From a virus: a DNA stretch of 44,520 nt. The translations under genes were made by a program, and so were the position numbers. Under the pieces are notes generated by a model. It ran no database searches. It saw only the letters and a program-made list of their open reading frames with translations, and was not told where the DNA came from. The DNA is taken from the UHGV virus genome UHGV-0202726; one strand, written 5' to 3'. This document shows, one piece after another, positions 3,348 to 27,686 of the stretch (positions within the stretch are counted from its first letter, which is position 1; each line of letters opens with the position of its first letter).

Positions 3348-3378
3348 CTTCTGTCTCTCCTCTCGTCTGTGTAAATGA

Positions 3379-3408
3379 ATAGTAGCCTATTCTATTTCAG
3401 CGTGCAAG
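3379..3408 (-). promoter_or_regulatory. promoter, TTGCAC-N18-TACTAT class with palindromic GAATAG/CTATT core
   Basis: -35 TTGCAC (3408..3403), -10 TACTAT (3384..3379) on minus strand, about 35 nt upstream of the ATG at 3347; related to the elements at 5157-5185 and 27631-27659. Confidence 0.5.
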
Positions 3409-3414
3409 TAAATT

Positions 3415-3588
3415 TTATTGGTGTGTTATAGAGTCGATGAACGCCAGTAACGCGCGCTCCGCTTCTGCTTCTCTTTCCTCAAGTGACCAGGTAGCGGACT
3501 CCTCTGTTGCCGTTGCTAAATCGGTTTTTACATCAATCATCGTGTCAATTAACGTGATTAGTCGTTCGGCCTGTTCTTTAGTAATCAT
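3415..3588 (-). CDS. hypothetical small protein (57 aa, below ORF-track cutoff)
   Basis: ATG at 3588 with GGAGA RBS 7 nt upstream; fills the gap between terminator and promoter. Confidence 0.3.
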   Translation of the reverse strand: MITKEQAERLITLIDTMIDVKTDLATATEESATWSLEEREAEAERALLAFIDSITHQ

Positions 3589-3639
3589 TGTTGCATCTCC
3601 TGCAATAGTCTCTTCGATTGTTGCGTTTGGTGAAATAGA

Positions 3640-3679
3640 ACAAAAATGAGAAAAATGATACGCTGCTGTGTAGCAGCGT
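3640..3679 (-). terminator. rho-independent terminator
   Basis: Stem ACGCTGCT/AGCAGCGT with 4-nt loop followed on minus strand by TCATTTTTCTCATTTTTG. Confidence 0.6.
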
Positions 3680-3759
3680 AAGTCACTCAGTAAAATCCCA
3701 AACTATTGAACATCACACTTCCAGCGGCTCGGGTAACGGCATCCAGTGTGTTATACGTA

Positions 3760-4065
3760 TCAATCAGTCGCGTGTTTACGTACCCAGGCGATGCGTGCCG
3801 GATTTAGGTGGATTGTTCCATCATCGCACTCGACGTCATAGTTAGGTTCGCCGTGGTTAAACGGGTAGCCCGAATCTAACCCAGCGTTGGTAAACTGTGC
3901 TTTCAACTCCAGGCGCAGAGCGCGGAGGTTGTAACCTTTATCACCTGCCCACTTATGCAATGCGAAACATAGTCCGGTGCAACATGTGAATACGCCATTG
4001 TTAACCGCACCAGCATCGAGCCACGCAGCGTAGGCTTTATAAAATGCTTTAAGTTCTTCGCTCAT
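3760..4065 (-). CDS. hypothetical protein
   Basis: ATG with GAGG RBS; 101 aa; no recognisable domain. Confidence 0.5.
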   Translation of the reverse strand: MSEELKAFYKAYAAWLDAGAVNNGVFTCCTGLCFALHKWAGDKGYNLRALRLELKAQFTNAGLDSGYPFNHGEPNYDVECDDGTIHLNPARIAWVRKHATD

Positions 4066-4068
4066 ATC

Positions 4069-4212
4069 TCACCTCGTATTCATCGCATATTGCACACCAG
4101 CTTTCCACGCCCGCCACGCGAGACGTGTCTTAACGTTAAGGTACTCTTTCTTAGAACCCTTGTTAACCGGCAGACCCTCGACGACGGCCCACCGTTCAAA
4201 TGCTTCTCTCAT
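4069..4212 (-). CDS. hypothetical small protein (47 aa)
   Basis: ATG at 4212 with TAAGGA RBS; exactly fills the gap between 4216 and 4065. Confidence 0.3.
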   Translation of the reverse strand: MREAFERWAVVEGLPVNKGSKKEYLNVKTRLAWRAWKAGVQYAMNTR

Positions 4213-4215
4213 AAC

Positions 4216-4473
4216 TTAGTCCTTAACCTTTACCCAGAATTCACCACAATACCAGCACCACAAAAGATTAGGGGTCTCACGAACCCAACCATAATCCTTA
4301 CGTGCACGAATCGGGATAATGCCTTTAATGGAATAATAACCTGTCTGAAGAAACTCAGGGTCGCGCGTCGCAATGCGCCACATGTTATAGAACTGCTCCA
4401 GCCCCGCACCCCGACGCATGACCCGTATTTTACGGTTATATTCCGCTACTGTTTTCAGTTCAGTATTATTCAT
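4216..4473 (-). CDS. hypothetical protein
   Basis: ATG at 4473 shares TAATG overlap with upstream stop; GGGAGG RBS. Confidence 0.5.
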   Translation of the reverse strand: MNNTELKTVAEYNRKIRVMRRGAGLEQFYNMWRIATRDPEFLQTGYYSIKGIIPIRARKDYGWVRETPNLLWCWYCGEFWVKVKD

Positions 4474-4706
4474 TAACGGCAACCTCCCTCGGAGTCGTCG
4501 GCACGAGCATCATGATTCGATGCCGTTGTGTATATTTCCGCTTCGGCCTTAGTTACTGGCACTTTGTAATGCCTGACCTTAATCCACCAGCCGTACTCGC
4601 AGGAGTCCAGCACATCAAAAACATCGCCAATATTTACGCCTATGCTTTCCAGAGTATCGTTAGCTGTTTCATAGGTAACGGTGTTATCTGTAATTATGAT
4701 TTGCAT
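4473..4706 (-). CDS. hypothetical protein
   Basis: ATG at 4706 in TGATG overlap with upstream stop. Confidence 0.5.
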   Translation of the reverse strand: MQIIITDNTVTYETANDTLESIGVNIGDVFDVLDSCEYGWWIKVRHYKVPVTKAEAEIYTTASNHDARADDSEGGCR

Positions 4707-4885
4707 CACTTTGCCCCTTTGAATTTAAAATTGTTGCCGATGAGTGTTAGCTCGTACTCGTAAAACCACATATCAAAATCCCAGTACGGATTAGTCAAAA
4801 AATATCTCCCTGGTATTTTAGAACCTCGCACAATGACGCCGTACCCGCAGTCTTTCGTTTTAACCAACTGACCGTGCTTAAACAT
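4706..4885 (-). CDS. hypothetical protein
   Basis: ATG at 4885 with GAGGGG RBS preferred over track GTG at 4894. Confidence 0.45.
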   Translation of the reverse strand: MFKHGQLVKTKDCGYGVIVRGSKIPGRYFLTNPYWDFDMWFYEYELTLIGNNFKFKGAK

Positions 4886-4903
4886 AACCCTCACCCCTCT
4901 GTC

Positions 4904-5122
4904 TTATTTAAAGTAGATAGCGAATTTCTTGTAACCCGCAGGCTCGTTACGAAGCCCTTTACCGTTGGCGAAACGTTGTACGTTAATAAAATCATTTTCA
5001 TCCATTCCGTCGGTGTCGAACGTAAAGAAGTTTCGTTTGTTCCCGATGATTACTCGCTCTGAGATATCGATGCCGTAAACTTCTTTTATTGCGGAAACTA
5101 CGCTTGCGGTCGCTTTGTTCAT
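4904..5122 (-). CDS. hypothetical protein
   Basis: ATG with AAGGAA RBS; first gene of the leftward operon. Confidence 0.5.
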   Translation of the reverse strand: MNKATASVVSAIKEVYGIDISERVIIGNKRNFFTFDTDGMDENDFINVQRFANGKGLRNEPAGYKKFAIYFK

Positions 5123-5156
5123 TTCTAAATTCCTTATGTCTCGTTTCGATAAGTGA

Positions 5157-5185
5157 ATAGTATCCTATTATGTTGGGGTGTGCAA
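5157..5185 (-). promoter_or_regulatory. promoter, TTGCAC-N17-TACTAT class (leftward)
   Basis: -35 TTGCAC (5185..5180), 17-nt spacer, -10 TACTAT (5162..5157); 36-bp element 32/36 identical to the one at 27629-27664. Confidence 0.5.
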
Positions 5186-5560
5186 GAGAATAGTTACGTT
5201 GCCGTTGTGATTCGTTCGTTTCTTAAAAGAGTACGCAACGCAGTGGGTGGGCGTTAGCCCACCCCAGCGGAGTGAAGTACTCTCTACCTTGCTTACGGCA
5301 ACTATAGAAACTTTTAATTATCATATACTTAAGAGATATGCTGCCGATGAGAATAGAGCTTGCCCAGGGCAACCGGAGATACTAAGGAAGGAAAGTTACG
5401 ATAATTCTTATGTTCAGTAATCTGCCGCTTAACACTTCGCTGGCGCTGGTGCGCCGCTGCGTTTCAAGCGGGTATTACAAGGTGAACAGGAATCAAAGTA
5501 ACTAAGATATAGAAGCACCTTAAACGAAGATTTTCATAATGTCAATAGGTGCGATTATGT

Positions 5561-5589
5561 TTGATTTCCCATTATTCGCAATGTATACT
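5561..5589 (+). promoter_or_regulatory. sigma70-like promoter (rightward) for the HTH/replication operon
   Basis: TTGATT, 17-nt spacer, TATACT, about 30 nt upstream of the GAGGG RBS and ATG at 5622. Confidence 0.5.
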
Positions 5590-5621
5590 TGGTTTCGTTA
5601 ACTGATAATGAGGGTTTGAGA

Positions 5622-5792
5622 ATGACGCAGAATGAGGTAGCTGAGCGTATTGGGGTTACTCGTCGTACGCTTAATAACTGGTTAAAGAGTGGGAAGTTCC
5701 CTGATTGTTGTACCCGCATTATGGGCCGCCGGCAGCCAGGTACGTTTGACCCGGAGAAAGTGGAAGCGTGGATTAAGGAGAATGTAAAATGA
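5622..5792 (+). CDS. helix-turn-helix DNA-binding protein (AlpA/excisionase-like fold suggested)
   Basis: ATG at 5622 with GAGGG RBS preferred over track TTG at 5589; MTQNEVAERIGVTRRTLNNWLKSGKFP looks like an HTH. Confidence 0.55.
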   Translation: MTQNEVAERIGVTRRTLNNWLKSGKFPDCCTRIMGRRQPGTFDPEKVEAWIKENVK

Positions 5793-6022
5793 CCGAGTTC
5801 CAGTCCCGGGTATTTACGGCTGTCGTTTCGCTAACACGTAAAAAAGGGTCGTGCAGCGTTATGGACTTGCGTCGTAGTTATTTTAGGTACTATAGTTCCG
5901 CCATTATTGAAGGGTCGTTGAAGGTGCTGGTTAAATCTGGTGTCGTGAAAAATGTTGGTGGGAAATATAGTGCTGTTGCTGAAGTTCGCGGAATGACCGC
6001 TACTTTAGAAGACCTGGAATAA
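5789..6022 (+). CDS. hypothetical protein
   Basis: ATGA overlap with upstream stop; AAGGAG RBS. Confidence 0.5.
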   Translation: MTEFQSRVFTAVVSLTRKKGSCSVMDLRRSYFRYYSSAIIEGSLKVLVKSGVVKNVGGKYSAVAEVRGMTATLEDLE

Positions 6023-6080
6023 AAGAAAGCCCCGACGCGGTGAACGCCGAGGCCAAATTACTTGCTGAAGGAATTATAAT

Positions 6081-8348
6081 ATGTCCGATGTAATTTTATC
6101 CTACTCGTGGTCACGCCGCAACGCGCGAGCAGAGAAAAAGGATATAAACGTCAGAACCACACACACGGCAACACTGGACGACCTGAAAGCGTTAATCCAG
6201 CCGCTTGATGCTGTTCGTGATGGGATTAACCCGAAGACAGCGCCCGGCTATATCACCGCCGCGTGTGACTCTACACACAGCACCGTGAAAGACCCGGAAA
6301 CCGGTGACTTTAAGCAAGCGCGTAAAGGCTTTTTCTATCGCTGCGACGCATCTGTAAGCAAATCGTCGCTGGCGTATCTGGACTTCGACAGCGCAACGCC
6401 GGAAGAGTATCAGGAAGCGGTGCGTCTGGTTAAGCGAAGCCGCCGTGCGATGTGCCTCTATACCACGGCATCACATACCGACGAGTCCCCGCGCTTTCGC
6501 GTCGTCATGCCGCTGGCCCGTCCGGTTGAAGTCGGCGACATCATCCGTGTTCGTCATGGGTTGCTTGAGCACTTCTTCAAAGGCATGGGCGCGGACCGCA
6601 GCGGGTTCACTCTGTCGCAGCCGATGTACCTGCCGCCAGTTGGCTCTCATGTTATCTGGTCGCGCCGCAACGACCTGATTGACCCGGACGAATTACTGGA
6701 AGGCATCCCCGCCGTTGACGTTAGCAGCGCATCGGATTACCAGATACCAGAAGAACTGCGCACCGCGTTTACAGATGCGTTCGAAGCACTGGCGTTCGAG
6801 TACGGCGGCATCATGACACCGCGCGGCCTTAAGATGCCAGCTACACCGGAACACGCAGAGAACTACAGCGACCCGACGCCGCGCCCGGATGACTTTCTGC
6901 TGTGTTTCCCGCGAGAGGGGTACGAAGCGCCGAACGTAACCATGATTCACGACACCGACATTACGGCAACCGAAGGCATGTCGCCGAAAGAGGTGTGGAA
7001 ATACGCGTGCGATGCGACTGGTCTGCCGTTCAGTGAAGTAGCCGAGGCAATCGGCTGGGGTGCACGTGAATCTGTTTCATGCAGTCTCGACGACCTGGAA
7101 GACGACGAGGACTCAGAGGAGGACGAGTTACCAGAACCGGTAAAGGCTGATTTCGTCGTCGAAGGGTACATGCCGTCGGATTGTATCTGGGATATCGTCG
7201 GGGAATCTGGCACGTACAAATCGTTTTATACGCTGGGGATGATGTACCTCAGCGCCGCCGGATACCGGTTCGCGGGGGCGGACACCCAGCGTTGCCACCA
7301 TTTCTATATAGACGGTGAGGGCGGCGCGGCCACACGTACACGTATTGATGCGCTCGCGGCTAAATACGGCGTGGAGGGTAAAGATTATGTACATGTCATA
7401 GACATGGGTGAGGTCGGAAAACTTAAAAGCCTGATTAAGTTAATGCGCGAAACTGCTGGCGACGAGCCAATCGGCATGGTTGCGTTCGACACCCTTAACC
7501 AGACGCTGGCCCTGACGATTGATAAGTTCGACGAGAACAGCTCATCAACGGCAATCGGTATGGGTAAAGTTATCGCCATCCTGAAAGAAGTACGTGATGC
7601 GACTAAAGCCGCGGTAGGTGTTGTCCACCACACACCGAAGGGCGGAAAGAAAGCCCGTGGTAGTGGGGCGCTGTACGCTGGCGTCGACGTGGAACTGACA
7701 ATTGAACGCGCTACCGACCGTCAGATAAACGTATATCACTCGAAATTTAAGCACGGGCCACAACAGAAGACAGTTGGCATGGTTCTGGAGTCGGTACAGT
7801 TCCGTGAAGCCCCGCCGCCGAAAGAGTACCGTGCAGTTGAGTTCCTGGGTAGCACAGAGGAATACGGCACAATCGTAAACCTGGACCTGCCTGAGCCACA
7901 CAAGGCGCTTGTGCTGATGCCGTGGGGCTTCGAGCCGTTTAAGACTGACGAGGAGAAAGAGCGGGAAGAAGGACTGACGAAGGAAGGTAAAGAAAACGTA
8001 CGTAAAACCGTAGAGAACGCCGTCAACAGTTCAGAAGCCACGATACTGGCGGCGTTTGAACTGGCGGAAGGAACCTACAACGGCAACGAGGGCATCACGG
8101 TAGCCGCAGCGAATAAGCTCGCACAGTCCGACCCTAACGCAAAGGCGTTTAACTCCAAAGAAGCCATAGAACGCGGGAAGATTAAGAAAATGGTTGAGGC
8201 GGGGTATCTTGTGCCAGGGACCGACGAAAACAATCAGATAATACCAGGCCGTTACAGGCTGAATACCCGGATAACGGATAACAAGATTCCGAAGACACTA
8301 TACGAACCGAATGAAATGCTGGTGGTGACCGAGGATGATTTGGAATAA
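6081..8348 (+). CDS. replication protein, RecA-fold ATPase (putative primase/helicase)
   Basis: 755 aa; Walker A GESGTYKS, Walker B-like MVAFDTLNQ, HHTPKG motif in C-terminal half; GAAGGA RBS; large N-terminal domain of unknown type. Confidence 0.7.
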   Translation: MSDVILSYSWSRRNARAEKKDINVRTTHTATLDDLKALIQPLDAVRDGINPKTAPGYITAACDSTHSTVKDPETGDFKQARKGFFYRCDASVSKSSLAYLDFDSATPEEYQEAVRLVKRSRRAMCLYTTASHTDESPRFRVVMPLARPVEVGDIIRVRHGLLEHFFKGMGADRSGFTLSQPMYLPPVGSHVIWSRRNDLIDPDELLEGIPAVDVSSASDYQIPEELRTAFTDAFEALAFEYGGIMTPRGLKMPATPEHAENYSDPTPRPDDFLLCFPREGYEAPNVTMIHDTDITATEGMSPKEVWKYACDATGLPFSEVAEAIGWGARESVSCSLDDLEDDEDSEEDELPEPVKADFVVEGYMPSDCIWDIVGESGTYKSFYTLGMMYLSAAGYRFAGADTQRCHHFYIDGEGGAATRTRIDALAAKYGVEGKDYVHVIDMGEVGKLKSLIKLMRETAGDEPIGMVAFDTLNQTLALTIDKFDENSSSTAIGMGKVIAILKEVRDATKAAVGVVHHTPKGGKKARGSGALYAGVDVELTIERATDRQINVYHSKFKHGPQQKTVGMVLESVQFREAPPPKEYRAVEFLGSTEEYGTIVNLDLPEPHKALVLMPWGFEPFKTDEEKEREEGLTKEGKENVRKTVENAVNSSEATILAAFELAEGTYNGNEGITVAAANKLAQSDPNAKAFNSKEAIERGKIKKMVEAGYLVPGTDENNQIIPGRYRLNTRITDNKIPKTLYEPNEMLVVTEDDLE

Positions 8349-8350
8349 GT

Positions 8351-8374
8351 AAAAAGAAAGGGGCATTAAGCCCC
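8351..8374 (-). terminator. terminator for the XRE regulator transcript
   Basis: Stem GGGGC/GCCCC with ATTAA loop spanning the stop codon, followed on minus strand by TTTCTTTTT. Confidence 0.5.
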
Positions 8375-8581
8375 TTCACCGAACGCCAGCCACTTGGCGT
8401 CTACTTGTAGCACTTCCGCCAGCTTGAACAGCGTCGCCGGTCGGACGTCCTGAGTTACCCCGAGCGCAAGCTGGTTAATCGCGCCCTGGGAAACGCCAGC
8501 CAGGACCGCCAGACGGCGCTGGGAGATGCCGAGTTCTTTACGGCGTTGTTCTACGCGGATACCTAGTTCAGATGGTTGCAT
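8366..8581 (-). CDS. XRE-family helix-turn-helix transcriptional regulator (Cro/CI-like)
   Basis: 71 aa; LGISQRRLAVLAGVSQGAINQLALG is a typical XRE HTH; AAGGAG RBS; monocistronic with own terminator. Confidence 0.75.
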   Translation of the reverse strand: MQPSELGIRVEQRRKELGISQRRLAVLAGVSQGAINQLALGVTQDVRPATLFKLAEVLQVDAKWLAFGEGA

Positions 8582-8604
8582 GTCATTTACTCCTTAGTCA
8601 GTTG

Positions 8605-8630
8605 ATATGTGAATAGTACCATATTAATTA
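8605..8630 (-). promoter_or_regulatory. operator-like palindrome and probable -10 region of the XRE regulator gene
   Basis: TGTGAATAGTACCATATTAA; TACTAT on minus strand (8618..8613) about 30 nt upstream of ATG 8581; weak -35, AT-rich upstream. Confidence 0.4.
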
Positions 8631-8645
8631 TTTTAGAAAAGCCCA

Positions 8646-8674
8646 TTGACACGTGAATAGTTCGCTATTATAGT
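8646..8674 (+). promoter_or_regulatory. consensus sigma70 promoter
   Basis: TTGACA, 17-nt spacer containing TGAATAGTT, TATAGT. Confidence 0.6.
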
Positions 8675-8704
8675 TAACCCATACCAAACGAGAGGATACA
8701 TAGC

Positions 8705-8884
8705 GTGGATGTTAAAGACTGGTGCGGGAGGTTTAGCAAATGTGACGGTTGCAAACTTCAATCAGAATGCGCCGTAAGGCCAGAAGAGCTTTTTATAGTG
8801 TTCGAAGATGGTAAACCGGTAGACCGCTGGGCCATCAGAACGACAGAAATGATTAAACGAGAACTGGAGAAAGAAAAATGTTAG
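8705..8884 (+). CDS. hypothetical small Cys-rich protein (59 aa)
   Basis: GTG start with GAGAGGA RBS; DWCGRFSKCDGC...SEC cysteine cluster; stop overlaps next start. Confidence 0.3.
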   Translation: MDVKDWCGRFSKCDGCKLQSECAVRPEELFIVFEDGKPVDRWAIRTTEMIKRELEKEKC

Positions 8885-9375
8885 AGAAATTCTTAGTATT
8901 ACTGGAACGTTTCGTAGTTGCACATGAACTTATTGCTGCGAATAGCGCGAAACAAGTTGTCGTTTCCGAAGTAGATGGGTTACCCGCAGAGACTAAAGCC
9001 GACGTAGTTCGTGCCGTTGTAAAAGCCGAAGAAACAAAAGAAATCCCGGTCGAAGGTGAAGACCTCGTAGACACTAAACCGGCAGAAGAAGAGAAGCCAA
9101 AACGCAAGCCGCGTAAAGCTAAAGTAGAGGAACCTACGCCAGAGCCGGAAGAAGAGAAAGAAGAAGTCGATTATCAGTCTCTGCGTGACCAGATTCAGGC
9201 TATCGACGACGCCATTAACGAAGGTCCGAGCGACGCCGCGTGCGACGATTCTGATGAACTACTGGAAGAGTTCACCGGTAAGAAAATGAAGATTGCCGCG
9301 ATTAAAGACGAAGACCTGGCTGAATATCTGGAACGCCTGACGGCAATCAAGAACAAGTATTTCGAAGAAGAATAA
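8878..9375 (+). CDS. hypothetical highly acidic protein
   Basis: ATG with GGAGAAAG RBS; long Glu/Asp/Pro/Lys low-complexity centre and acidic C-terminus. Confidence 0.55.
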   Translation: MLEKFLVLLERFVVAHELIAANSAKQVVVSEVDGLPAETKADVVRAVVKAEETKEIPVEGEDLVDTKPAEEEKPKRKPRKAKVEEPTPEPEEEKEEVDYQSLRDQIQAIDDAINEGPSDAACDDSDELLEEFTGKKMKIAAIKDEDLAEYLERLTAIKNKYFEEE

Positions 9376-9382
9376 CTATCTT

Positions 9383-9402
9383 GCGGCCTTCGGGCCGCTT
9401 TA
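9383..9402 (+). terminator. GC hairpin with UUCG loop, weak terminator or attenuator
   Basis: GCGGCC-TTCG-GGCCGC followed by TTTAAC. Confidence 0.4.
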
Positions 9403-9418
9403 ACTGAGGGTCGGAAAT

Positions 9419-9706
9419 ATGAAATACGAAGATATGAGCGATTTTGAGATTAACTGCTGTGTACACGCAGAGGTTATGCAAATTTCAGGATTGAATTCGT
9501 TTAAGGCCAAAGACTACTGCAACAACCCATCTGATGCATGGCCCATAATAATTGATAATCACATATCAATTGAATGCGTTACGGCTAACCGGCATACGTT
9601 TACATATCGCGCGTACCACTCTGCATCTTTCACCAAAAGTACGCACGAAAACCCCCTACGCGCCGCTATGATTGTCTTTCTGAAAATGCGGGAGAAGGCG
9701 CAATGA
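9419..9706 (+). CDS. hypothetical protein
   Basis: ATG with GAGGG RBS; several Cys/His; no recognisable domain. Confidence 0.5.
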   Translation: MKYEDMSDFEINCCVHAEVMQISGLNSFKAKDYCNNPSDAWPIIIDNHISIECVTANRHTFTYRAYHSASFTKSTHENPLRAAMIVFLKMREKAQ

Positions 9707-9975
9707 TTTACCAACTCTACCGCGCCGTAGACAGGCGAGATAACACAGAGGCGCTATGGTTATTGCGTGCGCCGTCAGAGGCACACCAGATGGAAGAGAT
9801 GGCGTACTTAGGCAAAGTACCGCGGCCTAAAGACATAGGCCGTCATGTGTCGCAGATTAAGCGCACGACTTTCGCCAAACCTGACTTTTATGTCTTTGAG
9901 TCGATGTATGGCTGGGCTATGCACTGCGAGCATAAGACACGGCATTTAATTGACCAGTGGGAGAGCAGGGCATGA
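9703..9975 (+). CDS. hypothetical protein
   Basis: ATGA overlap with upstream stop; GGGAGAAGG RBS. Confidence 0.5.
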   Translation: MIYQLYRAVDRRDNTEALWLLRAPSEAHQMEEMAYLGKVPRPKDIGRHVSQIKRTTFAKPDFYVFESMYGWAMHCEHKTRHLIDQWESRA

Positions 9976-11213
9976 TTCTAAAAGAACGCGGTGGCAATAA
10001 CGATGTACACGCATTACTATCACCGTCAGGCGCTAAAAAGTGGTTAACCTGCCCGGCTTCTCTGGCCTGTGAAAAAGATATTCCTAACACGTCCGGTAAA
10101 GCCGCGGTATTAGGTACGGCTATGCACACCATAGCTGAGGTACATCTCAACGCCTATATCCGCGGCACTGCGCTACCATTAGAGCGTGAAGTCGGTGCTT
10201 ACGTGCTGGACGAGGGTAAAGGCCAGATTAAGGCGCTAATCAGCCCGATGAAATGCGCGGTACTGATTACGGCTGACATGATTGAGCAGGTGCGCAAGTA
10301 CACAGACTACTGCAAAGCTGTTATCGATGTAGCGACTTACGCCAAACTCGAGATGCGTGTCAATCTTACTGAGGTATTGCATCCAGGCTACGAAGGCGTT
10401 GAGACATTCGGAACCGCCGACCTTGTTGCCGTTCAGGAACTGGCGAACACCGACGAGCACATGCTCATTATTGGCGACCTTAAAACTGGACGGCATCGTG
10501 TTGAAGCGAAAGAAAACAAGCAGCTTATGCTTTACGCTCTCGGTGTTTATCGCCGACTCAAGAGACGTTATAACATCACAGTTGTTCGCCTGGTCATCTT
10601 TCAGCCGTACGCGGGCGGTGCGTCGGAGTGGGACATCTCGGTTGAAGGTCTGGAACTGTTCGCTAAGTTTGCACAGAAACGCGCACTGTTAGCTCTTGAC
10701 GCGTATTACCGAGGCAAGAAGAACCTGAAAGCATCTGACTTCAAGCCGTCAGTAGACGGTTGTCAGTGGTGCCGGTTCTCGGAACAGTGTGCCGCGCGTA
10801 CAAAAACCGTTAACGCGGTGCTGGCGGAAGAACTTGAAGACGACTTTGCGCTGGAACTGACACCAGAGCAACTCGTAGCTGAGTATGAGAAGTTGCCATT
10901 GTTGCGCCAGCACATCGACAAGGTCGAGAAAGCGATGTCCGCCGCGTTGCATTCCGGTAAGAAAGTGCCGGGGTACAAGCTGGTTGAAGGTAAGATGGGC
11001 AATCGTGCGTGGAAGGATGCTGAGGCGGTATACGAGAAATACGGCTACAAGCTGACTAAAGACGTGCTCATGTCACCTACCGAAGCGGTTAAAGTCATAC
11101 CGGAGGAGGAGCTAAAAGACTTCATTACCCGTAAGCCTGGCGCACCATGTGTTGCAACGGCGGACGACAAGCGTCCTGAGTGGAATCAGGTAACAGAGGA
11201 GGATTTGGAATGA
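9972..11213 (+). CDS. PD-(D/E)XK nuclease, Cas4/RecB-like with Cys cluster
   Basis: ATG at 9972 (ATGA overlap, GGAGAG RBS) preferred over track GTG 9957; GDLKTG (D-x-K), QLMLYAL (QxxxY), N-terminal C and C-terminal CQWCRFSEQC consistent with a Cas4-type Fe-S cluster. Confidence 0.75.
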   Translation: MILKERGGNNDVHALLSPSGAKKWLTCPASLACEKDIPNTSGKAAVLGTAMHTIAEVHLNAYIRGTALPLEREVGAYVLDEGKGQIKALISPMKCAVLITADMIEQVRKYTDYCKAVIDVATYAKLEMRVNLTEVLHPGYEGVETFGTADLVAVQELANTDEHMLIIGDLKTGRHRVEAKENKQLMLYALGVYRRLKRRYNITVVRLVIFQPYAGGASEWDISVEGLELFAKFAQKRALLALDAYYRGKKNLKASDFKPSVDGCQWCRFSEQCAARTKTVNAVLAEELEDDFALELTPEQLVAEYEKLPLLRQHIDKVEKAMSAALHSGKKVPGYKLVEGKMGNRAWKDAEAVYEKYGYKLTKDVLMSPTEAVKVIPEEELKDFITRKPGAPCVATADDKRPEWNQVTEEDLE

Positions 11214-11383
11214 TGGTTTATATTCTCACGCGGTATCACCGCCGATATTCTATTCAAGAACTTGATATTGTTTCTGTTCACGCTAAACGCGCCGACGCCG
11301 ACAAAATTGCAGAAGAGAAGAACTCGAAGCATGAGGCGGTGCAGCCCTATATTTATAAGGTAGTTCCGAAGAAACTTAAATAA
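11210..11383 (+). CDS. hypothetical protein
   Basis: ATG at 11210 overlaps nuclease stop (ATGA); GAGGAGGA RBS. Confidence 0.45.
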   Translation: MMVYILTRYHRRYSIQELDIVSVHAKRADADKIAEEKNSKHEAVQPYIYKVVPKKLK

Positions 11384-11387
11384 AGTG

Positions 11388-11416
11388 TTGACACCTGAAT
11401 AGTTAGCTATTATAGT
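11388..11416 (+). promoter_or_regulatory. consensus sigma70 promoter
   Basis: TTGACA, 17-nt spacer containing TGAATAGTT, TATAGT. Confidence 0.6.
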
Positions 11417-11472
11417 TCTAATCACTGGCCGGGCAGCTTCCCGGAGTAAACTGAAAACTGAGGAATCGAGAA

Positions 11473-12099: not shown

Positions 12100-12118
12100 T
12101 ATCTGAATCAATTTAACT

Positions 12119-12141
12119 AAGGCCCTTCATTGGGCCTTTTT
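12119..12141 (+). terminator. rho-independent terminator
   Basis: AAGGCCC-TTCATT-GGGCCTT followed by TTTTT. Confidence 0.65.
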
Positions 12142-12160
12142 ACTAAGGGTCGAAAATAAT

Positions 12161-14615: not shown

Positions 14616-14933
14616 ATGAGTACGCCTGAGGGGCGCATCCAGAAATACGCAAAAGACCGATTCGAGGCCATTGGCGGCCTCGTTCGTAAACTTTCCTACG
14701 AAGGACGTTCCGGCGCTCCCGACCTGCTGGTAATTCTCCCCAACGGCATCGTCTGGTTCGTCGAGGTTAAGAAAGACGAAAACACGAAGCCAGACCCTCA
14801 CCAGTTACGGGAACACGAGCGGATGCGTAAACGTGGCGCAAATGTTTTTGTAGTTGGTTCGATAAAACAGGTTGACACCCTAGTAGCGGACTATTATAGT
14901 AAGTACATACCCCAACAATATAAGGAATTATAA
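14616..14933 (+). CDS. VRR-NUC domain nuclease
   Basis: PDLLVILPNG...VEVKK...Q..E arrangement typical of VRR-NUC PD-(D/E)XK proteins; GAGGGG RBS. Confidence 0.7.
   Translation: MSTPEGRIQKYAKDRFEAIGGLVRKLSYEGRSGAPDLLVILPNGIVWFVEVKKDENTKPDPHQLREHERMRKRGANVFVVGSIKQVDTLVADYYSKYIPQQYKEL
14872..14900 (+). promoter_or_regulatory. consensus sigma70 promoter inside the 3' end of the VRR-NUC gene
   Basis: TTGACA, 17-nt spacer, TATAGT. Confidence 0.55.
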
Positions 14934-14934
14934 A

Positions 14935-15228: not shown

Positions 15229-15420
15229 ATGAAACACGAATATGACCGCAAACCAGCACGTGACATCGTACCGGGCGACATGATTTTCAACGTTAAGACC
15301 CGTCGTCCTGTTGCCGTTGATACGGTGTACGTCGAGTCGAACGGTAAACTGGTTATCGAAGATGTAACCGGCAATATTACGGCGTTCGGGCGTAAAGAGT
15401 TAGTTCTGGTGTTGAAATGA
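15229..15420 (+). CDS. hypothetical protein
   Basis: ATG with AAGGAA RBS. Confidence 0.5.
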   Translation: MKHEYDRKPARDIVPGDMIFNVKTRRPVAVDTVYVESNGKLVIEDVTGNITAFGRKELVLVLK

Positions 15421-17651: not shown

Positions 17652-17655
17652 AGAA

Positions 17656-17682
17656 AAGGCCCCGTTTGGGGCCTTAGTTTTA
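17656..17682. terminator. bidirectional rho-independent terminator between convergent operons
   Basis: AAGGCCCC-GTTT-GGGGCCTT with T-rich tracts on both sides. Confidence 0.65.
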
Positions 17683-19599: not shown

Positions 19600-19611
19600 A
19601 TAGAGTCCTCT

Positions 19612-22167: not shown

Positions 22168-22523
22168 AATTCAATCTCCGTGTACGTGTCTCTGAGGTCC
22201 ACCAGCCTGTCAAGCCGTACCTGACGGGACGCAAGCTCGCAATGGCTCACCATCCCGTCGAAGTAAACTCCCGCGTGCCACACGATACGCCCACCACGGC
22301 GGTACCCCATAAGCACCGCACAGAAGTTTTCAGGCTTATCGATTTTCGTAAGCCCCTTCGTGTTGCGGTGGCCTTCGTCAAACGCTTCGTTAATTGCCGT
22401 GGGGCTTGTAACGTCGAACGCCGGAGTTTCTAACCCAGCATCTGCCCGTACAATGCGCACGTGATGCCAGCAATTGCGCTTGCGAAAGTCGTAAGGTATA
22501 CCCGTGTAGTCGTTAATATTCAT
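22158..22523 (-). CDS. minor tail protein, possible NlpC/P60-like (lambda K-like)
   Basis: 121 aa with conserved-looking Cys/His (NCWHHV...HAGVYFDGMVSHCE); position in tail tip cluster. Confidence 0.5.
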   Translation of the reverse strand: MNINDYTGIPYDFRKRNCWHHVRIVRADAGLETPAFDVTSPTAINEAFDEGHRNTKGLTKIDKPENFCAVLMGYRRGGRIVWHAGVYFDGMVSHCELASRQVRLDRLVDLRDTYTEIEFWR

Positions 22524-23035
22524 GTGGTCAACAGGCCGCGTAATAACGGTATCTCTTTAGGTGTCATCAGTATACCAGTGCTTCGTTGGTTCAGCATAGG
22601 TGTACCGACATCCGCGGAGAACTCGCCTTTCTCCTGGTTGATAGCCTGTAACTCGTACACGACAGGGCCGTCCGCGGGATAGGACAGGTCGGTGCTGACA
22701 TACCGGCGGAATACGAACTTTGGCAACTCGGTGTTACTCATCGGGATTTTATCCATCTCATCATCAAGTTGATTGAGAATATCCGGTAAAGTAAACGTCG
22801 TCGTCTGGTCCATATCGCTATTATTAGCCGCCCCCGACGCTTCCATCGGGGTGGGTTCGAATGTGATAGTTTCGCCCGTCTCCAGTGTTGCCGTAAGTTC
22901 CTGTAGCCCGCGCACAAGATAATACGTCTTCGATAGCAACGGGTGGCTGATTTGCAACGTGATGTAGTCCATCTCGCCGTCGGGGTTTGAGGCCAGCTTA
23001 CGGCGGTAGGCTGCTTCTACTGATTCCTGGCTCAT
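22520..23035 (-). CDS. minor tail protein
   Basis: Position between distal tail protein and K-like protein; overlapping stops and starts. Confidence 0.45.
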   Translation of the reverse strand: MSQESVEAAYRRKLASNPDGEMDYITLQISHPLLSKTYYLVRGLQELTATLETGETITFEPTPMEASGAANNSDMDQTTTFTLPDILNQLDDEMDKIPMSNTELPKFVFRRYVSTDLSYPADGPVVYELQAINQEKGEFSADVGTPMLNQRSTGILMTPKEIPLLRGLLTT

Positions 23036-23038
23036 AAG

Positions 23039-24439
23039 TTAACCGTCCACATTAAAATCAATACGGGTGATATATTTACTCCCCCACGCTGAATTAGCCC
23101 GTGGTATGGCGGCGTAGCCATCAACAGCCTGAACGTTTACCACAGAGCTGTCGGAGTAGGTGATGTCGATACTTGTTGCGCCGTTCATTGCTACTTTTGC
23201 AGTTGCGGAATACCGAGTAACGGGCGATGGTCCTGTGATTATAGGTGATGTCGCGAAACTACTACGCTCCATTTGCGGGGCACAAGACAGTACCCCACTA
23301 ACCCCATCTCCGATGAATGATGACCCTGTTGCGGAGTTATACACCCATGCCATTATGCCTAAGTATGCCGACCCTTTAGCTGACGAGAATGTTATTGTTT
23401 CTGTTACGCGGAACCATCCGCTACCGAGGTTAGTCACAGTAGTGCCGCTCGCCCCGGAAGACACCTCGCCGTCAGACAGGTCTACAACAGAATCGCCTAG
23501 TACCCCTATATCATCATATACGCGCAACCGTATAAACCTGTACCCGTAAGACTTGAAACACCAAGAGAATGTATACTTTGATCCATCCATAAAACTACCG
23601 GTAACTATCTGTTGTACAGAATGACTTCCGGATACCGCAGTTGGTATCAGGCTGTACGTGTAGTCCGTAGACAGTTCGTCAGAGGCCCAAATCACGTTTA
23701 CTCTTGTCCTGCTCCACGATGTTTCGGAAAGATTAGATGATTGTGTTAGAAAATTGACCACCCCATTGTCAGGAGGTACGCGCCCGACAGCAACCCCATC
23801 GATAAACGTAAGAGGCCATTCATCGGCAGCGGACTGCACAAGATTGCCGTTGCGGTTGATGTAATAAACCTGCGGCCCGTCATACACAATGCGGCTATCA
23901 AGAGTCGACGCCAGAAGGTTAATCGGCGGGTATCCTGCAGGCCCTTCATTGCTCCAGATGCGAGGGAACGTCGTCTCATAGTTCGCATATATTTTCAGGA
24001 AACTACCCAGACAATCCCCGTAACAACCGTACAAATCTGGAAGATTGTTAATCAGGCACTGGTTCTCTTGGTCCTGGAACGGCGATTTCTCGGCGGTTGC
24101 CGTGAAGGTAATCGTCCAGTTAATGCCGTCTTCGGTGGACTCCGCGATGGTGGATGTGATTGTTACCTGATAATCTTCGATGCCCATGCCGAAGTCGTGC
24201 GCCATCCAGAAACTTGACGCACCGCCGTCTACTTTTTCGAGGAACGACAGAAACGCCTGTCGCCCCATTGCGGATGTAATCAGGGTTACGCTAACAGGGA
24301 ACACGTCGTAATACGTGTCACGGCCCTGACGCACCCCGCCACCGGCTAAATCAACACTCCAGACGTTGTTGCGTCTGGTCATTGAGTAGCCTTTTGACAC
24401 CACTGGCTTAAGGCTACGTGGGAAATATAAGTCGCTCAT
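23039..24439 (-). CDS. minor tail protein (distal tail protein-like)
   Basis: 466 aa directly downstream of the tape measure gene. Confidence 0.5.
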   Translation of the reverse strand: MSDLYFPRSLKPVVSKGYSMTRRNNVWSVDLAGGGVRQGRDTYYDVFPVSVTLITSAMGRQAFLSFLEKVDGGASSFWMAHDFGMGIEDYQVTITSTIAESTEDGINWTITFTATAEKSPFQDQENQCLINNLPDLYGCYGDCLGSFLKIYANYETTFPRIWSNEGPAGYPPINLLASTLDSRIVYDGPQVYYINRNGNLVQSAADEWPLTFIDGVAVGRVPPDNGVVNFLTQSSNLSETSWSRTRVNVIWASDELSTDYTYSLIPTAVSGSHSVQQIVTGSFMDGSKYTFSWCFKSYGYRFIRLRVYDDIGVLGDSVVDLSDGEVSSGASGTTVTNLGSGWFRVTETITFSSAKGSAYLGIMAWVYNSATGSSFIGDGVSGVLSCAPQMERSSFATSPIITGPSPVTRYSATAKVAMNGATSIDITYSDSSVVNVQAVDGYAAIPRANSAWGSKYITRIDFNVDG

Positions 24440-26751
24440 TACTTGAACCCCGGCGCATTTCTTGTGGCCTTGCGGGCCTTGCTAATCTTACTGTTGCTGT
24501 TCTGCAAAGAGGCTGCCACTTGCTCTTCGATGATGATACGAAGACGCCCTTCATCATCTTGTTCGGTGGATACGTTGCTGATTTGAGAACTCGTGTTGTT
24601 TACGATAGTAACATTAGACGGGCCTGAAGAAGACCCGTTTTGCCCCATAATTTCTTTCATCTGCTGGGCGGTGCGCACACGGGATGCGCCGGCCGGCATG
24701 ATAACTTCCGGTTTACCGCGTTCTGCGATGGTGGAAGCCTGCCCTGCGGATAACTGTCCGCCCTGTTCACGCGCGGACCGGATAGCGGAAACCTGCGCCA
24801 TACCCGCCCCAACGGCAGCGGCAGCGGCTACGGGGGCCAGGAACGGGCCAACTACAGGGATAGCCGCCGTGGACTTGTACGCCTCGATAGCTGCGGTGTA
24901 CGTGGCTATGGTGGCCTGTACGATAGCGAATGCCTTATACGCACCAGAGGCCTCGCCCAACGCAGACCCGATGTTTGACGCCATGTTACCGAAGGCGGTT
25001 GCCGTTGCGTCGGCACGCTTGGTGGCGTATTGCTCGTTGATGGCGTTAAGCGCGGCCTGATACTGCTTCTCACTAATAAGCCCTTGCTCACGGTACTTAT
25101 CTGCGACCGCCAGTTTCTGCTGCTCCTGGATGTCGAGAAGCTCAAGCTCAGTAGCGTTCTGGCCAATAATCTGAGCCATGAAGTCGTCGCCTTTCTGCTT
25201 TTTCTCCTGCCGTTCTTTCTCGCGCTTATCCAATTCTTGCTGCCGTGCGGTATCCGCCTCCAGCATAATCTGAGTTTTGGCGTTTTCATACTGCTGCTGG
25301 CTTATCGTTCCGGCGCGGTTGAACTCTTCAAGTTTCGCCAGTTTCTGCTCTTCGGCCGCCGTGATGCGAGAAATTTCATCTCCGGTTGTACGGTCAACCG
25401 TAGCGAGGAAATCTTCCGCGGCTTTCTTCTGGCGTTGTGCCGCCGTTTCTTCACGTTTGGCCTGCGCCGCCAGACGTTTCTCGTTCGATTTAGCCTCGCG
25501 GTCTGCCTTCGCTTTTTCGGTCGCGTCGATGCGAGCGATGTCTTGCTGTGCTTCCGTGTCACGGGCTGCGTTATACGCGGCTATCTGTTCTTTGGTGACA
25601 GCTTCACGCTTAGCGAATGCCTGCTTGTCCAGTTCAGCTTGCGCCCGGATGCGTTCGCGGTCGCTTAAGATGGCAATTTGCTGATTCTTGACGATAGCTT
25701 CGTTCTGTTCCTGGAACCTCTGCGTGGTTGAGTTAACGTTACGACCGAGATTCTTTTGGGCCTCTGCTGCCGCGTTTGCTGACTTCTCCGCGTTCTCCAG
25801 TGCCGTGGCGTTCTTGTTGGCGTTGTCAGTCAGGCGGATAAGTTCCGGGTTCAACTGTTTTGTGTTACCGAGCCAGTCGGTAAACACATCGGCGATGCGG
25901 CGGGCATTCTCGGCGGTTGGCTCTTTGTTAAACGCGCTCTGCGCCGCTATCATCTCCAGCGCCTGGTCACGGTTAACCCCGAACTTACTGCTAAGCTCCG
26001 CTATATTCTGCGCCAGCATGTTGACGCCTACGATGTTACCCTCGTAAGTGCCGCCAAGTTTTTCTAACGTGTCGCCTACATCCGCACCCTTAGAGACCAA
26101 TGCATCGTACTGGCTAATAGCGGATGCCGTGGAGGCTTTCCATGTCTCCCATGACTCGGCGTCCTCGCGGACAGCTTTAGCTGTTTGCTGCGCGATAAGG
26201 TCTGCGTTAGCCTTAGCCAGAGCAAGCTGAGTCTCCGCCGCTTCTCTGCTGATTTGGGTAAGCTGGATAAGGCCGTCTGTCAGTTCGAGGGAGCCAGATG
26301 CCGTTTGCTGGAAAGTATCCTTTAACTGCTTCTGCGCAGCTTCGAGGTCTTTTGAACTGCCTTCTGCTTCGGTTAGTGATTTGTACAGGACACCACCAAT
26401 TGCTGATGCTAGAGCGATTACCGCCCCGAGCACCGCACCACCAGGGCCGAAAGCGCCAGCAAGTTGGGAACCTTGCTGCCCTATCGCAACGAATGCAGAC
26501 GTACCGGATTGCAACTGGACTACCATGTCCTGCACCTGGAAACCAACCTGCCCAGCAGCGTTACGGAACTTAGCGAAACCGTCGGACGCTGCTTTAGAGG
26601 TGGCGGTGTTAACTTTATTAACATCCGGCGTTAGTTTGTTTACAGATGTGTCCGCCCGGTCTGCGGATGCCGCCATAGCGTCAAGCTGTTTGGCAGCGAC
26701 GTCAGCCCCTTCAGTTTTTACTCTGGCGATTAGGGAAGCCGTATCAGCCAT
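24439..26751 (-). CDS. tail tape measure protein
   Basis: About 770 aa, Ala/Gln/Glu-rich coiled-coil, Gly-rich hydrophobic segment near C-terminus; ATG at 26751 with GAGGG RBS preferred over track TTG at 26766. Confidence 0.8.
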   Translation of the reverse strand: MADTASLIARVKTEGADVAAKQLDAMAASADRADTSVNKLTPDVNKVNTATSKAASDGFAKFRNAAGQVGFQVQDMVVQLQSGTSAFVAIGQQGSQLAGAFGPGGAVLGAVIALASAIGGVLYKSLTEAEGSSKDLEAAQKQLKDTFQQTASGSLELTDGLIQLTQISREAAETQLALAKANADLIAQQTAKAVREDAESWETWKASTASAISQYDALVSKGADVGDTLEKLGGTYEGNIVGVNMLAQNIAELSSKFGVNRDQALEMIAAQSAFNKEPTAENARRIADVFTDWLGNTKQLNPELIRLTDNANKNATALENAEKSANAAAEAQKNLGRNVNSTTQRFQEQNEAIVKNQQIAILSDRERIRAQAELDKQAFAKREAVTKEQIAAYNAARDTEAQQDIARIDATEKAKADREAKSNEKRLAAQAKREETAAQRQKKAAEDFLATVDRTTGDEISRITAAEEQKLAKLEEFNRAGTISQQQYENAKTQIMLEADTARQQELDKREKERQEKKQKGDDFMAQIIGQNATELELLDIQEQQKLAVADKYREQGLISEKQYQAALNAINEQYATKRADATATAFGNMASNIGSALGEASGAYKAFAIVQATIATYTAAIEAYKSTAAIPVVGPFLAPVAAAAAVGAGMAQVSAIRSAREQGGQLSAGQASTIAERGKPEVIMPAGASRVRTAQQMKEIMGQNGSSSGPSNVTIVNNTSSQISNVSTEQDDEGRLRIIIEEQVAASLQNSNSKISKARKATRNAPGFK

Positions 26752-27115
26752 CTTCTCTGCCCTCAAATATTCCGTCTAAGCCCATGATAACCTCGGCTTC
26801 GAACAAACTTATGCCGTAACCGGCGACATCACGAAACGCTACCAAATCTTGCCATTTGAGCGCATCGCGCGGGATTATAACGATAGTATCATCTGTTTCG
26901 CGCTGTAGGAATTTAATGGCACGGTATTTCTCGAACACGTCGATAAGAGAAACGGGGCATTCTGGCCCCGTCGCTTCTTTCATCTGCGGTTCTTTAATCA
27001 CGCCCATTGCAATCAAAGCCGCCTGGTGCCCCGCCGCGATGTCGTCGAATTGCTTACGTTTCTGGCGGTCGACAAAGCACCATTGCGCAAATTCATACAG
27101 CGCTTTTACTTTTCC
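26744..27115 (-). CDS. putative -1 frameshift extension of the tail assembly chaperone (GT-like product)
   Basis: Reading frame in -1 register relative to the upstream chaperone gene, open from 27130 through 26744 with no start codon near its 5' end; GGAAAAG heptamer precedes the chaperone stop. Confidence 0.35.
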   Translation of the reverse strand, partial: GKVKALYEFAQWCFVDRQKRKQFDDIAAGHQAALIAMGVIKEPQMKEATGPECPVSLIDVFEKYRAIKFLQRETDDTIVIIPRDALKWQDLVAFRDVAGYGISLFEAEVIMGLDGIFEGREDG

Positions 27116-27522
27116 GAGAGTTTCTCGCGGCTATCGGTGTGGTGCTTAACTACGGCTTCTGCCAACCCACTGTACTGGTCAAACAGGTTAGCCAGCGCCT
27201 CTTTGCTGAACGGTTCGTCGAATGACCAACCGGTGACGATTTCCACGGCAAGCTGCTTGTTCAGGTCCATCACCCGCCAGCCCTTCTCATCATTATAACG
27301 CGCCCAGTTATTCAGTGCCTCACACTCTTTATCTAATGGCGCAAGTTCTTCCGTAAGGCGTCGAATTGCCGTTGTGTAGGCGCGGCCCGCGCGAACCCCG
27401 ACATCACAATCAGGACCAATGACCTGCAACCATTCTCCGGAGTCTTTACCACTCGGCAGAAGGATAGGCATTTTAGTACCGGCAGCGTGTCGGTCAGCAA
27501 AATAGAAATCAGAAAGTTTCAT
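27106..27522 (-). CDS. tail assembly chaperone (lambda G-like)
   Basis: 138 aa immediately upstream of the tape measure; AAGGA RBS. Confidence 0.55.
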   Translation of the reverse strand: MKLSDFYFADRHAAGTKMPILLPSGKDSGEWLQVIGPDCDVGVRAGRAYTTAIRRLTEELAPLDKECEALNNWARYNDEKGWRVMDLNKQLAVEIVTGWSFDEPFSKEALANLFDQYSGLAEAVVKHHTDSREKLSEK

Positions 27523-27630
27523 TCTTTAGTCCTTTGGTTAAGAGGTTACAGGTTAAGGTTGACGCGCCAGACGGGAACCACCCGCTTTTCGTGTGCGACA
27601 CTAGGCGCAAACTTATTCTAGCACACTACT

Positions 27631-27659
27631 TGCACACCCCGATATAATAGGGTACTATT
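27631..27659 (+). promoter_or_regulatory. promoter, TTGCAC-N17-TACTAT class (rightward) for the plus-strand island
   Basis: TTGCAC, 17-nt spacer, TACTAT; 36-bp element 32/36 identical to 5151-5186 in inverted orientation; followed by GAGGAA RBS and ATG 27687. Confidence 0.5.
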
Positions 27660-27686
27660 CACCTGTAACTTACTGAGGAAATAATT

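Follow-up and report, generated by a model that had tools for sequence, protein, structure and literature searches.

Dispersed palindromic operators on the promoters of a Kagunavirus genome and a 434 Cro-like protein as their probable ligand

The window and its repeat

The DNA analysed here is the UHGV virus genome UHGV-0202726, a stretch of 44,520 bp that we refer to as the window. Its promoters carry a short palindrome, AATAG-N4-CTATT (the dyad), that is found in front of almost every transcription unit. The window also encodes a 71-amino-acid (aa) protein of the XRE family, similar to 434 Cro, which is the probable binder of the dyad.

A 12-kb piece of the window matched 486 phage records. 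The best matches belong to Kagunavirus (K1G, K1ind, EC3-1 and SZH-1, with 85-91% identity), and the Salmonella Jerseyviruses are more distant matches of the same piece. By this comparison the window is essentially a near-complete Kagunavirus genome, i.e. that of a K1G-like E. coli phage of the Guernseyvirinae. The gene map was transferred from annotated relatives and is given together with the sites in Table 1.

Table 1. Dyad sites, candidate regulators and gene blocks of the window. Minus-strand promoter elements are numbered in the direction of transcription.
Feature	Position	Strand or direction	Match and sequence	Promoter elements	Genes and remarks
Operator	3378-3391	-	10/10	overlaps -10 TACTAT 3384-3379; -35 TTGCAC 3407-3402; class B, leftward	heads small genes, then holins and endolysin
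Operator	5156-5169	-	10/10	overlaps -10 TACTAT 5162-5157; -35 TTGCAC 5185-5180; class B, leftward	heads small early gene block; 27 unique orthologues
Operator	8612-8625	-	9/10, AATATGGTACTATT on minus strand	overlaps -10 TACTAT 8618-8613; extended -10 (TGG) promoter	XRE gene's own promoter
Operator	8656-8669	+	10/10	in spacer of class A TTGACA 8646-8651 -N17- TATAGT 8669-8674	heads Ral / NinX / exonuclease operon
Operator	11398-11411	+	10/10	in spacer of class A TTGACA 11388-11393 -N17- TATAGT 11411-11416	heads SSB (DUF2815) / DNA polymerase operon
Operator	14882-14895	+	9/10, AGTAG-CGGA-CTATT	in spacer of class A TTGACA 14872-14877 -N17- TATAGT 14895-14900	heads VRR-NUC / methylase / helicase operon
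Operator	27646-27659	+	10/10	overlaps -10 TACTAT 27653-27658; -35 TTGCAC 27630-27635; class B, rightward	heads 27687-30259 operon
Operator	37117-37130	-	9/10, AATAG-TTGA-CTTTT on minus strand	centred on -35 TTGACT 37125-37120; TGaTAAGCT, -10 37102-37097; class C, leftward	upstream of spanin and head genes
Possible extra site	38745-38758		9/10, AATAGCATACTATA	no promoter recognised	beside terminator between portal and head-morphogenesis genes; status uncertain
Operator	44375-44388	-	9/10, ACTAG-TTGA-CTATT on minus strand	centred on -35 TTGACT 44383-44378; -10 TATATC 44360-44355; class C, leftward	heads small genes and terminase
XRE / 434-Cro-like repressor gene, 71 aa	8366-8581	-			HTH_3; proposed cognate regulator
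HTH_17 (Xis/MerR-like) protein gene, 56 aa	5622-5792	+			above Pfam cutoff
Small genes, holins, endolysin	left end	leftward
HTH_17 / primase-helicase operon	after left-end block	rightward
Replication and recombination operons	up to ~17.5 kb	rightward
Structural genes		-			broken by rightward exonuclease/kinase operon, 27.7-30.3 kb
Exonuclease, kinase, ATPase operon	27687-30259	rightward			embedded in tail gene region

Occurrence of the dyad

The exact dyad occurs 5 times in the window where 0.04 copies are expected, and none of 100 shuffled sequences reached this number. These copies bear out the half-sites AATAG and CTATT and the 4-nt spacing that an earlier note on this DNA had given. The longer 17-mer of that note, searched with up to 3 mismatches, is found 7 times (0.25 expected), and all seven sites on its list are present, at positions that are right within 1-2 nt.

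Two further scans were made. A position weight matrix built from the relatives (threshold of at least 10 bits) found 9 sites in the window as compared to 0.35 in shuffled sequences. The second was an unbiased enumeration of all 5+5 palindromes with spacers of 0 to 10. Here AATAG-N4-CTATT ranks first in the window as well as in K1G, 590B, Jersey and SETP3, where the other high-ranking palindromes are terminator stems. Another 46 Kagunavirus and Jerseyvirus loci were taken from IMG/VR, and it heads the list in nearly all of these too.

Two sites were found beyond those listed before, i.e. a 9/10 site at 44375-44388, which lies outside the range covered by the note, and a doubtful one at 38745-38758. 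A copy of the latter is also present in 590B and was flagged by the PHIRE program in phage Golestan. The note had moreover described a related perfect palindrome, AACTATTCGAATAGTT, at 37124-37139. The letters are as it gave them; the element is an ordinary 9/10 operator (37117-37130) lying on a -35 hexamer, together with one extra everted half-site.

Promoter classes

Every one of the seven previously listed sites overlaps a sigma-70-type promoter core and both strands are represented, in agreement with what the note had claimed. The dyad is placed on these promoters in three registers, with its centre at about -18.5 (class A), -12.5 (class B) or -33.5 (class C), and in both orientations. The class A promoters (rightward; sites 8656, 11398 and 14882) have the form TTGACA-N17-TATAGT, which agrees with the consensus in 11 of 12 positions. 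Here the spacer is taken up by the dyad, whose final T already belongs to the -10 hexamer as its first base. In class B (leftward at 3378 and 5156, rightward at 27646) the form is TTGCAC-N17-TACTAT and one half-site is itself the -10 hexamer. The flanks of the class B dyad are asymmetric (TGAATAG on one side, TAATAG on the other) and are inverted relative to class A. In class C (leftward at 37117 and 44375) the dyad reads AATAG-TTGA-CTnTT, and the TTGACT within it is the -35 hexamer; both class C sites are 9/10.

The earlier note spoke of control of early promoters. This description is too narrow at one end and too broad at the other: the spanin/head promoter and the small-gene/terminase promoter also carry sites, albeit weaker ones, and the promoter of the HTH_17/primase-helicase operon (TTGATT-N17-TATACT, 5561-5589) carries no dyad.

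A further copy of the palindrome stands apart from any promoter. In many Kagunavirus loci (for example near 14650 in L030) a small gene has a perfect AATAGGTTACTATT over its stop codon, with a bidirectional terminator at a distance of about 13 nt. The copy at this position is 9/10 in the Jerseyviruses; that of the window (~3690-3710) is decayed, with 2 mismatches. A role as roadblock or auxiliary operator is conceivable. We also note that AACGAGA(G)GAG-like leaders are found 15-25 nt downstream of several operator-bearing promoters (5139, 8687 and 44336, with GACGAGA near 3362). The AACGAGA heptamer is not enriched genome-wide (8 copies, 5.4 expected), and these leaders may just be a shared ribosome-binding site context.

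Conservation of the half-sites

Orthologous promoters were aligned from about 40 Kagunavirus genomes and loci, which gave 20-27 unique sequences per promoter. It is conspicuous that the entropy of the half-sites is zero or near zero, i.e. as low as that of the -35 and -10 hexamers, whereas there is free variation in the centre of the dyad and in its flanks. Of the class A half-sites, the upstream one is nearly invariant in 26 orthologues even though it is located in the spacer. The imperfect site at 14882 is exact in most relatives, and there too the half-sites are nearly invariant and the centre is variable (26 unique orthologues). The two class C sites are also conserved: the one at 37117 in K1G, 590B, ST20 and XY1, and the one at 44375 in 24 unique Kagunavirus and 9 unique Jerseyvirus sequences, where the single mismatch falls in opposite half-sites in the two genera. 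In the imperfect copies a compensating change on the other arm was never seen.

As the half-sites are invariant while the centre and the flanks drift, the element behaves as a protein-binding operator independent of the promoter hexamers, and the use of three registers and two orientations rules out a fixed contact of the polymerase. In other words, the pattern argues that the dyads are operators for a symmetric dimeric protein and are under purifying selection.

The XRE protein as candidate binder

The 71-aa protein is a genuine helix-turn-helix (HTH) protein, as the note had proposed. It matches the Pfam family HTH_3 (PF01381) with an E value of 1.2e-12 (48 bits, cutoff 23), and its PHROG matches are families of transcriptional repressors. 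The best sequence match in the PDB (phmmer) is 434 Cro, which is likewise 71 aa long and is matched over its full length (E 4.9e-7), followed by the N-terminal domain of the 434 repressor. A single-sequence AlphaFold2 model (pLDDT 84) has five predicted helices, at residues 5-17, 21-28, 32-39, 48-57 and 62-66. The top Foldseek match of this model is 2cro (40% identity, TM score 0.72-0.78), then come 1pra and 3cro, with TM scores of 0.72-0.79 overall. The protein consists of a DNA-binding domain only. The Kagunavirus protein retains glutamines at the positions of Gln28 and Gln33 of the 434 repressor, which we treat only as a lead. 434 Cro binds 14-bp dyad operators, which is the same size as the dyads described here.

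The XRE gene is present in every motif-bearing genome and locus. When all open reading frames (ORFs) of the window were profiled, its product was the only protein of a specific-regulator type that is common to all five complete motif-bearing genomes. It is not, as the note had put it, the only classical small regulator of the window: the HTH_17 protein at 5622-5792 (+) is above the Pfam cutoff, and a NinH-like protein (42521-42781) is found below the threshold.

Adjacent sites occur just once in the window: the divergent control region of the XRE gene (8582-8704) has two of them, spaced by 44 bp. The promoter of the XRE gene itself has a class-B-like -10 hexamer, TACTAT, and no good -35 hexamer. 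The one departure of the 8612 site from the palindrome (AATAT-G) creates a TGn extended -10 for this promoter. The TG is kept in 20 unique Kagunavirus orthologues while n varies between G, A and C, and a weaker site is found at the same position of the XRE promoter in Jersey. A copy of the operator thus lies over the gene's own extended -10, which is consistent with the autoregulation suggested earlier. Taken together, the 71-aa protein probably binds the AATAG-N4-CTATT dyads and would act as a symmetric dimeric repressor of the phage promoters.

Variation across lineages

Cornellvirus (SP-031 and three metagenomic relatives) has kept the XRE protein, with 41% identity and the recognition helix TQSAISHL, and has neither the HTH_17 gene nor AATAG-N4-CTATT. 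Instead, the spacers of the equivalent promoters carry ATTAG-N4-GTAWT, with 4 sites found as compared to 0.12 expected. This sequence does not occur in any Kagunavirus or Jerseyvirus genome. The change concerns position 2 of the half-site and is mirrored on both arms.

More distant lineages, which include phiEap-2-like phages, were found by a search anchored on the SSB gene. In each of them an XRE homologue is encoded in synteny, about 3 kb upstream of SSB and on the opposite strand; its recognition helix is different, and HTH_17 is absent throughout. In some of these lineages the top palindrome found de novo again lies in promoter spacers, that of the SSB promoter included. TTAGC-N2-GCTAA occurs three times in each of two distant loci and TAATA-N6-TATTA five times in one. 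In the phiEap-2-like group AATAT-TAAA-CTATT and AATAG-TTTA-GTATT are found at the two promoters that were inspected. The operators of Kagunavirus and Jerseyvirus differ systematically at one position only, immediately outside the half-site, where T is found in all 42 Jerseyvirus half-sites vs T in 53% and G in 38% in Kagunavirus.

These comparisons indicate that the wider clade shares the presence of a dyad at these promoter positions, that the sequence of the dyad is lineage-specific, and that the XRE homologue travels along with it. Lineage-specific dyads together with a syntenic XRE gene fit a co-evolving phage factor and fit poorly with a conserved host factor of enterobacteria.

A different palindrome, GAATAA-N-TTATTC, is found three times in the spanin/late region of Cornellvirus SP-031 (L004; 25438, 26069 and 26596). 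At least one copy abuts a -35 TTGACA, at the same place as the Kagunavirus class C site. A separate late regulator may act on this palindrome.

Alternative explanations

Several observations weigh against the XRE protein as a general repressor of these promoters. The recognition helix differs between Kagunavirus (SQGAINQL) and Jerseyvirus (SQSLITHL) while the AATAG core is the same. A simple residue-to-base recognition code was tried and rejected, as no consistent mapping of helix-3 residues to bases was found across the lineages. As the same core goes with different helix-3 residues and no simple code, the XRE assignment is probable rather than proven. The lineage-specific motif of Cornellvirus was defined post hoc. 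A simple early shut-off would not explain why promoters of structural and lysis operons have sites as well. The only temporal RNA-seq study of a Kagunavirus (vB_Eco_K1B4; PMC12645636) covers 5-120 min at a coarse resolution and reports one gene with a "helix-turn-helix domain" among four early genes; the two relatives named there differ in their HTH_17 content. By gene order the XRE gene more likely corresponds to the "middle" gene _004 ("specific DNA binding", next to the AAA primase) rather than to the "early" HTH gene _008.

The dyad might be bound by another protein, either a phage protein that is not recognised as a regulator or a host transcription factor exploited by the phage, and the XRE protein would have a different or narrower target. 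The assignment of XRE to the sites is indirect, the recognition helices differ over an identical core half-site, and there are conserved small ORFs of no assigned function, such as 15229-15420 and 8878-9375. On the other side, XRE alone is conserved as a specific-regulator-type protein in all motif-bearing genomes, the tandem sites lie exactly at its gene, and the dyad sequence shifts between lineages that all infect enterobacteria, which would be unexpected for a conserved host factor. The conserved 63-aa and 43-aa ORFs have only weak matches that are membrane-protein-like. We consider a different binder unlikely, even if it deserves to be kept in mind.

It could also be argued that the repeat is no more than a phage promoter consensus, or a duplicated promoter cassette, which RNA polymerase reads without any separate regulator. 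Repeat and promoter always go together; in class B the -10 (TACTAT) is at the same time a half-site, and in class A the T at -12 comes from the dyad; promoters of one class share letters outside the dyad, for example TTGCACACCCC; and the repeat has been published as "conserved promoter sequences" (PMC7203180). The identical dyad is nevertheless used in three registers and in both orientations to transcription, and the half-site in the class A spacer is nearly invariant at a place where sigma-70 needs no specific sequence. The operator-free primase promoter further shows that a promoter can do without the dyad, and the annotations of the relatives include neither a phage RNA polymerase nor a sigma factor. 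Pure promoter consensus, which the earlier note had named as part of what would undo its proposal, was therefore rejected on account of the variable register and orientation and the invariant spacer half-site, and polymerase reading the repeat alone seems improbable to us.

The HTH_17 protein is the second candidate among the recognised regulators. It is 87.5% identical between the window and Jersey, which matches the identical operator core better than XRE does (just 51% identical), it is missing from Cornellvirus as is AATAG-N4-CTATT, its own promoter is operator-free, and it is perhaps the "early HTH" gene of the K1B4 transcriptome. The decisive cases are ST20 (a complete genome) and the loci L017 and L030, in which HTH_17 has been replaced by an unrelated cassette, yet 9, 3 and 6 sites are kept, respectively. 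In ST20 a sensitive tblastn search across the genome found no HTH_17, and its XRE protein is 100% identical to that of the window. Operator-like dyads at the same promoters are also retained in more distant lineages, all of which lack HTH_17; the gene is confined to Kagunavirus and Jerseyvirus (443 records). Moreover, HTH_17/Xis-type proteins usually bind direct repeats as monomers and not 14-bp palindromes, which we counted against this candidate. HTH_17 was thus rejected as the binder, and the chance that it is the right protein after all is very slim.

The HTH_17 gene and the following 77-aa gene (5789-6022 +) in front of the primase-helicase gene form a swappable cassette. In ST20, GZMU_E2010, L017 and L030 the replacement encodes a 47-aa CxxC...CxxC protein and a 149-aa protein (12559-13144 in L030; 6954-7539 in L064, which is ST20).

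The palindrome, being a perfect 5-bp inverted repeat, might instead form a hairpin in DNA or RNA, for example as a cruciform, a processing site or a terminator-like element. This was rejected and has next to no chance of being correct: such a hairpin would have a negligible predicted stability (about -1.4 to -1.5 kcal/mol), pairing is lost in the imperfect copies with no compensating change, most copies are located upstream of where transcription starts, and there is no Rfam match.

Proposed mode of action

With the XRE protein as the probable binder, the following course of events can be proposed. At entry, host RNA polymerase would fire the class A and class B promoters, which are of consensus strength, and the operator-free primase promoter. 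The XRE protein would be made from its own extended -10 promoter and would accumulate after infection. It would first fill the perfect sites and thereby damp the operons for replication and recombination and the small-gene/lysis operons, whose promoters carry perfect or near-perfect copies; Cro acts in a similar way in a lytic lambdoid infection. At a higher level the 9/10 sites would be filled as well, including those at its own promoter and at the spanin/head and terminase promoters, which would result in negative autoregulation and a graded hierarchy. The HTH_17/primase-helicase promoter, having no site, would escape.

Nine dyads coincide with a -35 hexamer, a spacer or a -10 hexamer, and the promoters concerned stand before nearly all transcription units, so a bound dimer would be expected to block the polymerase by occlusion. 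As the sites at the XRE gene's own promoter and at the lysis/head and terminase promoters are only 9/10, these would respond only at a higher XRE concentration. That the XRE protein binds these sites, that binding represses, and that the sites are occupied in this order is what we infer from the sequence.

A more far-reaching possibility is that the 71-aa protein is a stripped-down CI/Cro relic, able to shut essentially all promoters; only its own, with a weak site, and that of the primase-helicase operon, which has no site, would be spared. It could then support a transient, repressed carrier-like state or a transcription-level immunity against superinfecting relatives, and the specificities of operator and repressor would diversify by genus in the manner of the lambdoid immunity groups. 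We give this version little credence.

Relation to known systems

The features of the XRE/434 Cro family are found here, i.e. an HTH_3 domain, a predicted five-helix fold, 14-bp dyad operators and operators at the gene itself. The likeness to 434 Cro and to the N-terminal domain of the 434 repressor thus includes family, fold, the size of 71 aa (434 Cro) and 14-bp dyad operators over promoter cores. The arrangement of the locus also recalls the immunity region of 434 and other lambdoid phages, in that the repressor gene is divergent from a strong early promoter, operators lie on both, and Ral, NinX and NinH-like genes are nearby. There are clear differences, too. The half-site of 434 is ACAA and here it is AATAG; 434 has two clusters of three operators, whereas nine sites are dispersed over the genome here. 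Unlike in the lambdoid phages, the XRE protein has no partner repressor that carries a domain for oligomerisation or cleavage.

In phage P1, which is temperate, one repressor, C1, has operators scattered before many operons, in the manner of a genome-wide regulon and not of one switch region; these operators are asymmetric 17-mers, and C1 is unrelated in sequence. In function, the dispersed operators of the window resemble those of P1 C1 more than the clustered lambdoid ones, and no homology is claimed. The C proteins of restriction-modification (R-M) systems (C.AhdI, C.BclI, C.Esp1396I), which are among the structural matches, are likewise small stand-alone dimers of the XRE fold that bind palindromic boxes on their own promoter and thereby regulate themselves. 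They differ in that they control one or two R-M promoters and usually activate first and then repress, and the XRE gene has no R-M context.

A temperate immunity module is not what the window contains, as the protein has no C-terminal oligomerisation or cleavage domain and there is no second, antagonistic repressor. No integrase or partition genes are annotated in K1G, Jersey, SETP3, ST20, 590B or XY1. A search of 185,579 bacterial species genomes found no close homologue of XRE, only distant (at most 48%), unrelated matches, and thus gave no evidence of a prophage or episome. In the literature the phage family is described as strictly lytic and without lysogeny genes. Nor does the window look like a system of phage-specific promoters, as there is no fixed register or orientation of the repeat and no dedicated polymerase or sigma factor is annotated in the relatives.

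The repeat has been seen before. A PHIRE analysis of Kagunavirus VB_EcoS-Golestan (2020; PMC7203180, Table S4) lists seven "conserved promoter sequences" that are the same 20-mers, TAATAGnnnACTATTCAnnn, and two of the seven are listed "before ORF48", which is the HTH gene of Golestan. The elements are treated there as promoters only; the dyad symmetry, the variable register, the selection on the half-sites and the link to a repressor are not described. In GenBank several of these promoters are already annotated (Jersey, SETP3) and the gene is labelled "transcriptional repressor (DicA)". In the searchable literature no paper was found in which the repeat is read as a palindromic operator or connected with the repressor. 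The repeat itself is therefore not new, and the reading of it as a Cro-type repressor/operator regulon in a virulent siphovirus family is an addition to a known type; it introduces no new principle of regulation.

Kagunaviruses and Jerseyviruses are among the phages that are most often isolated for therapy or food biocontrol against E. coli and Salmonella, and their genomes are routinely flagged for the "transcriptional repressor (DicA)" gene. If our interpretation is true, the flagged gene would be a Cro-type regulator of the lytic cycle and not a marker of lysogeny, which would be relevant to the vetting of therapy genomes. It would also provide a concrete transcription map with three promoter classes and one escape promoter, as well as a compact, orthogonal repressor/operator set with natural variants (AATAG, ATTAG and TTAGC cores) for engineering and synthetic biology.

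Other features of the genome

Downstream of the class C promoter in front of the spanin genes lies a highly structured leader of about 220 nt (36870-37125, minus strand; minimum free energy -78.9 kcal/mol, z -3.7) that ends in a strong hairpin (36916-36897) immediately before the spanin ribosome-binding site. The leader is kept from Kagunavirus to Jerseyvirus, and 10 of its 47 predicted pairs show compensatory changes, in a set of only 8 sequences that come from few lineages; it has no match in Rfam. Its layout recalls the PR'-6S RNA-tR' arrangement that precedes the late genes of lambda. It could be an attenuator, an antitermination target for the late genes, or a small RNA. A second, diverged copy of the promoter and leader is found in the early intergenic region of ST20 (L064; 6600-6863, minus strand), where the promoter is without the AATAG half-site.

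Lambdoid accessory genes are present in this lytic siphovirus. A clear homologue of Ral, the lambda antirestriction protein, opens the main rightward operon (8705-8884, plus strand; Pfam E 1.6e-30), NinX is encoded at 9419-9706, and the NinH-like gene at 42521-42781 was mentioned above.

An Rfam scan of the whole window found nothing, which includes the noncoding stretch of about 370 bp at 5190-5560 between the divergent leftward and rightward early operons. This stretch contains GC-rich inverted repeats, for example GGGTGGGCGTTAGCCCACCC at ~5246-5265, and could be a replication origin or a regulatory RNA region.

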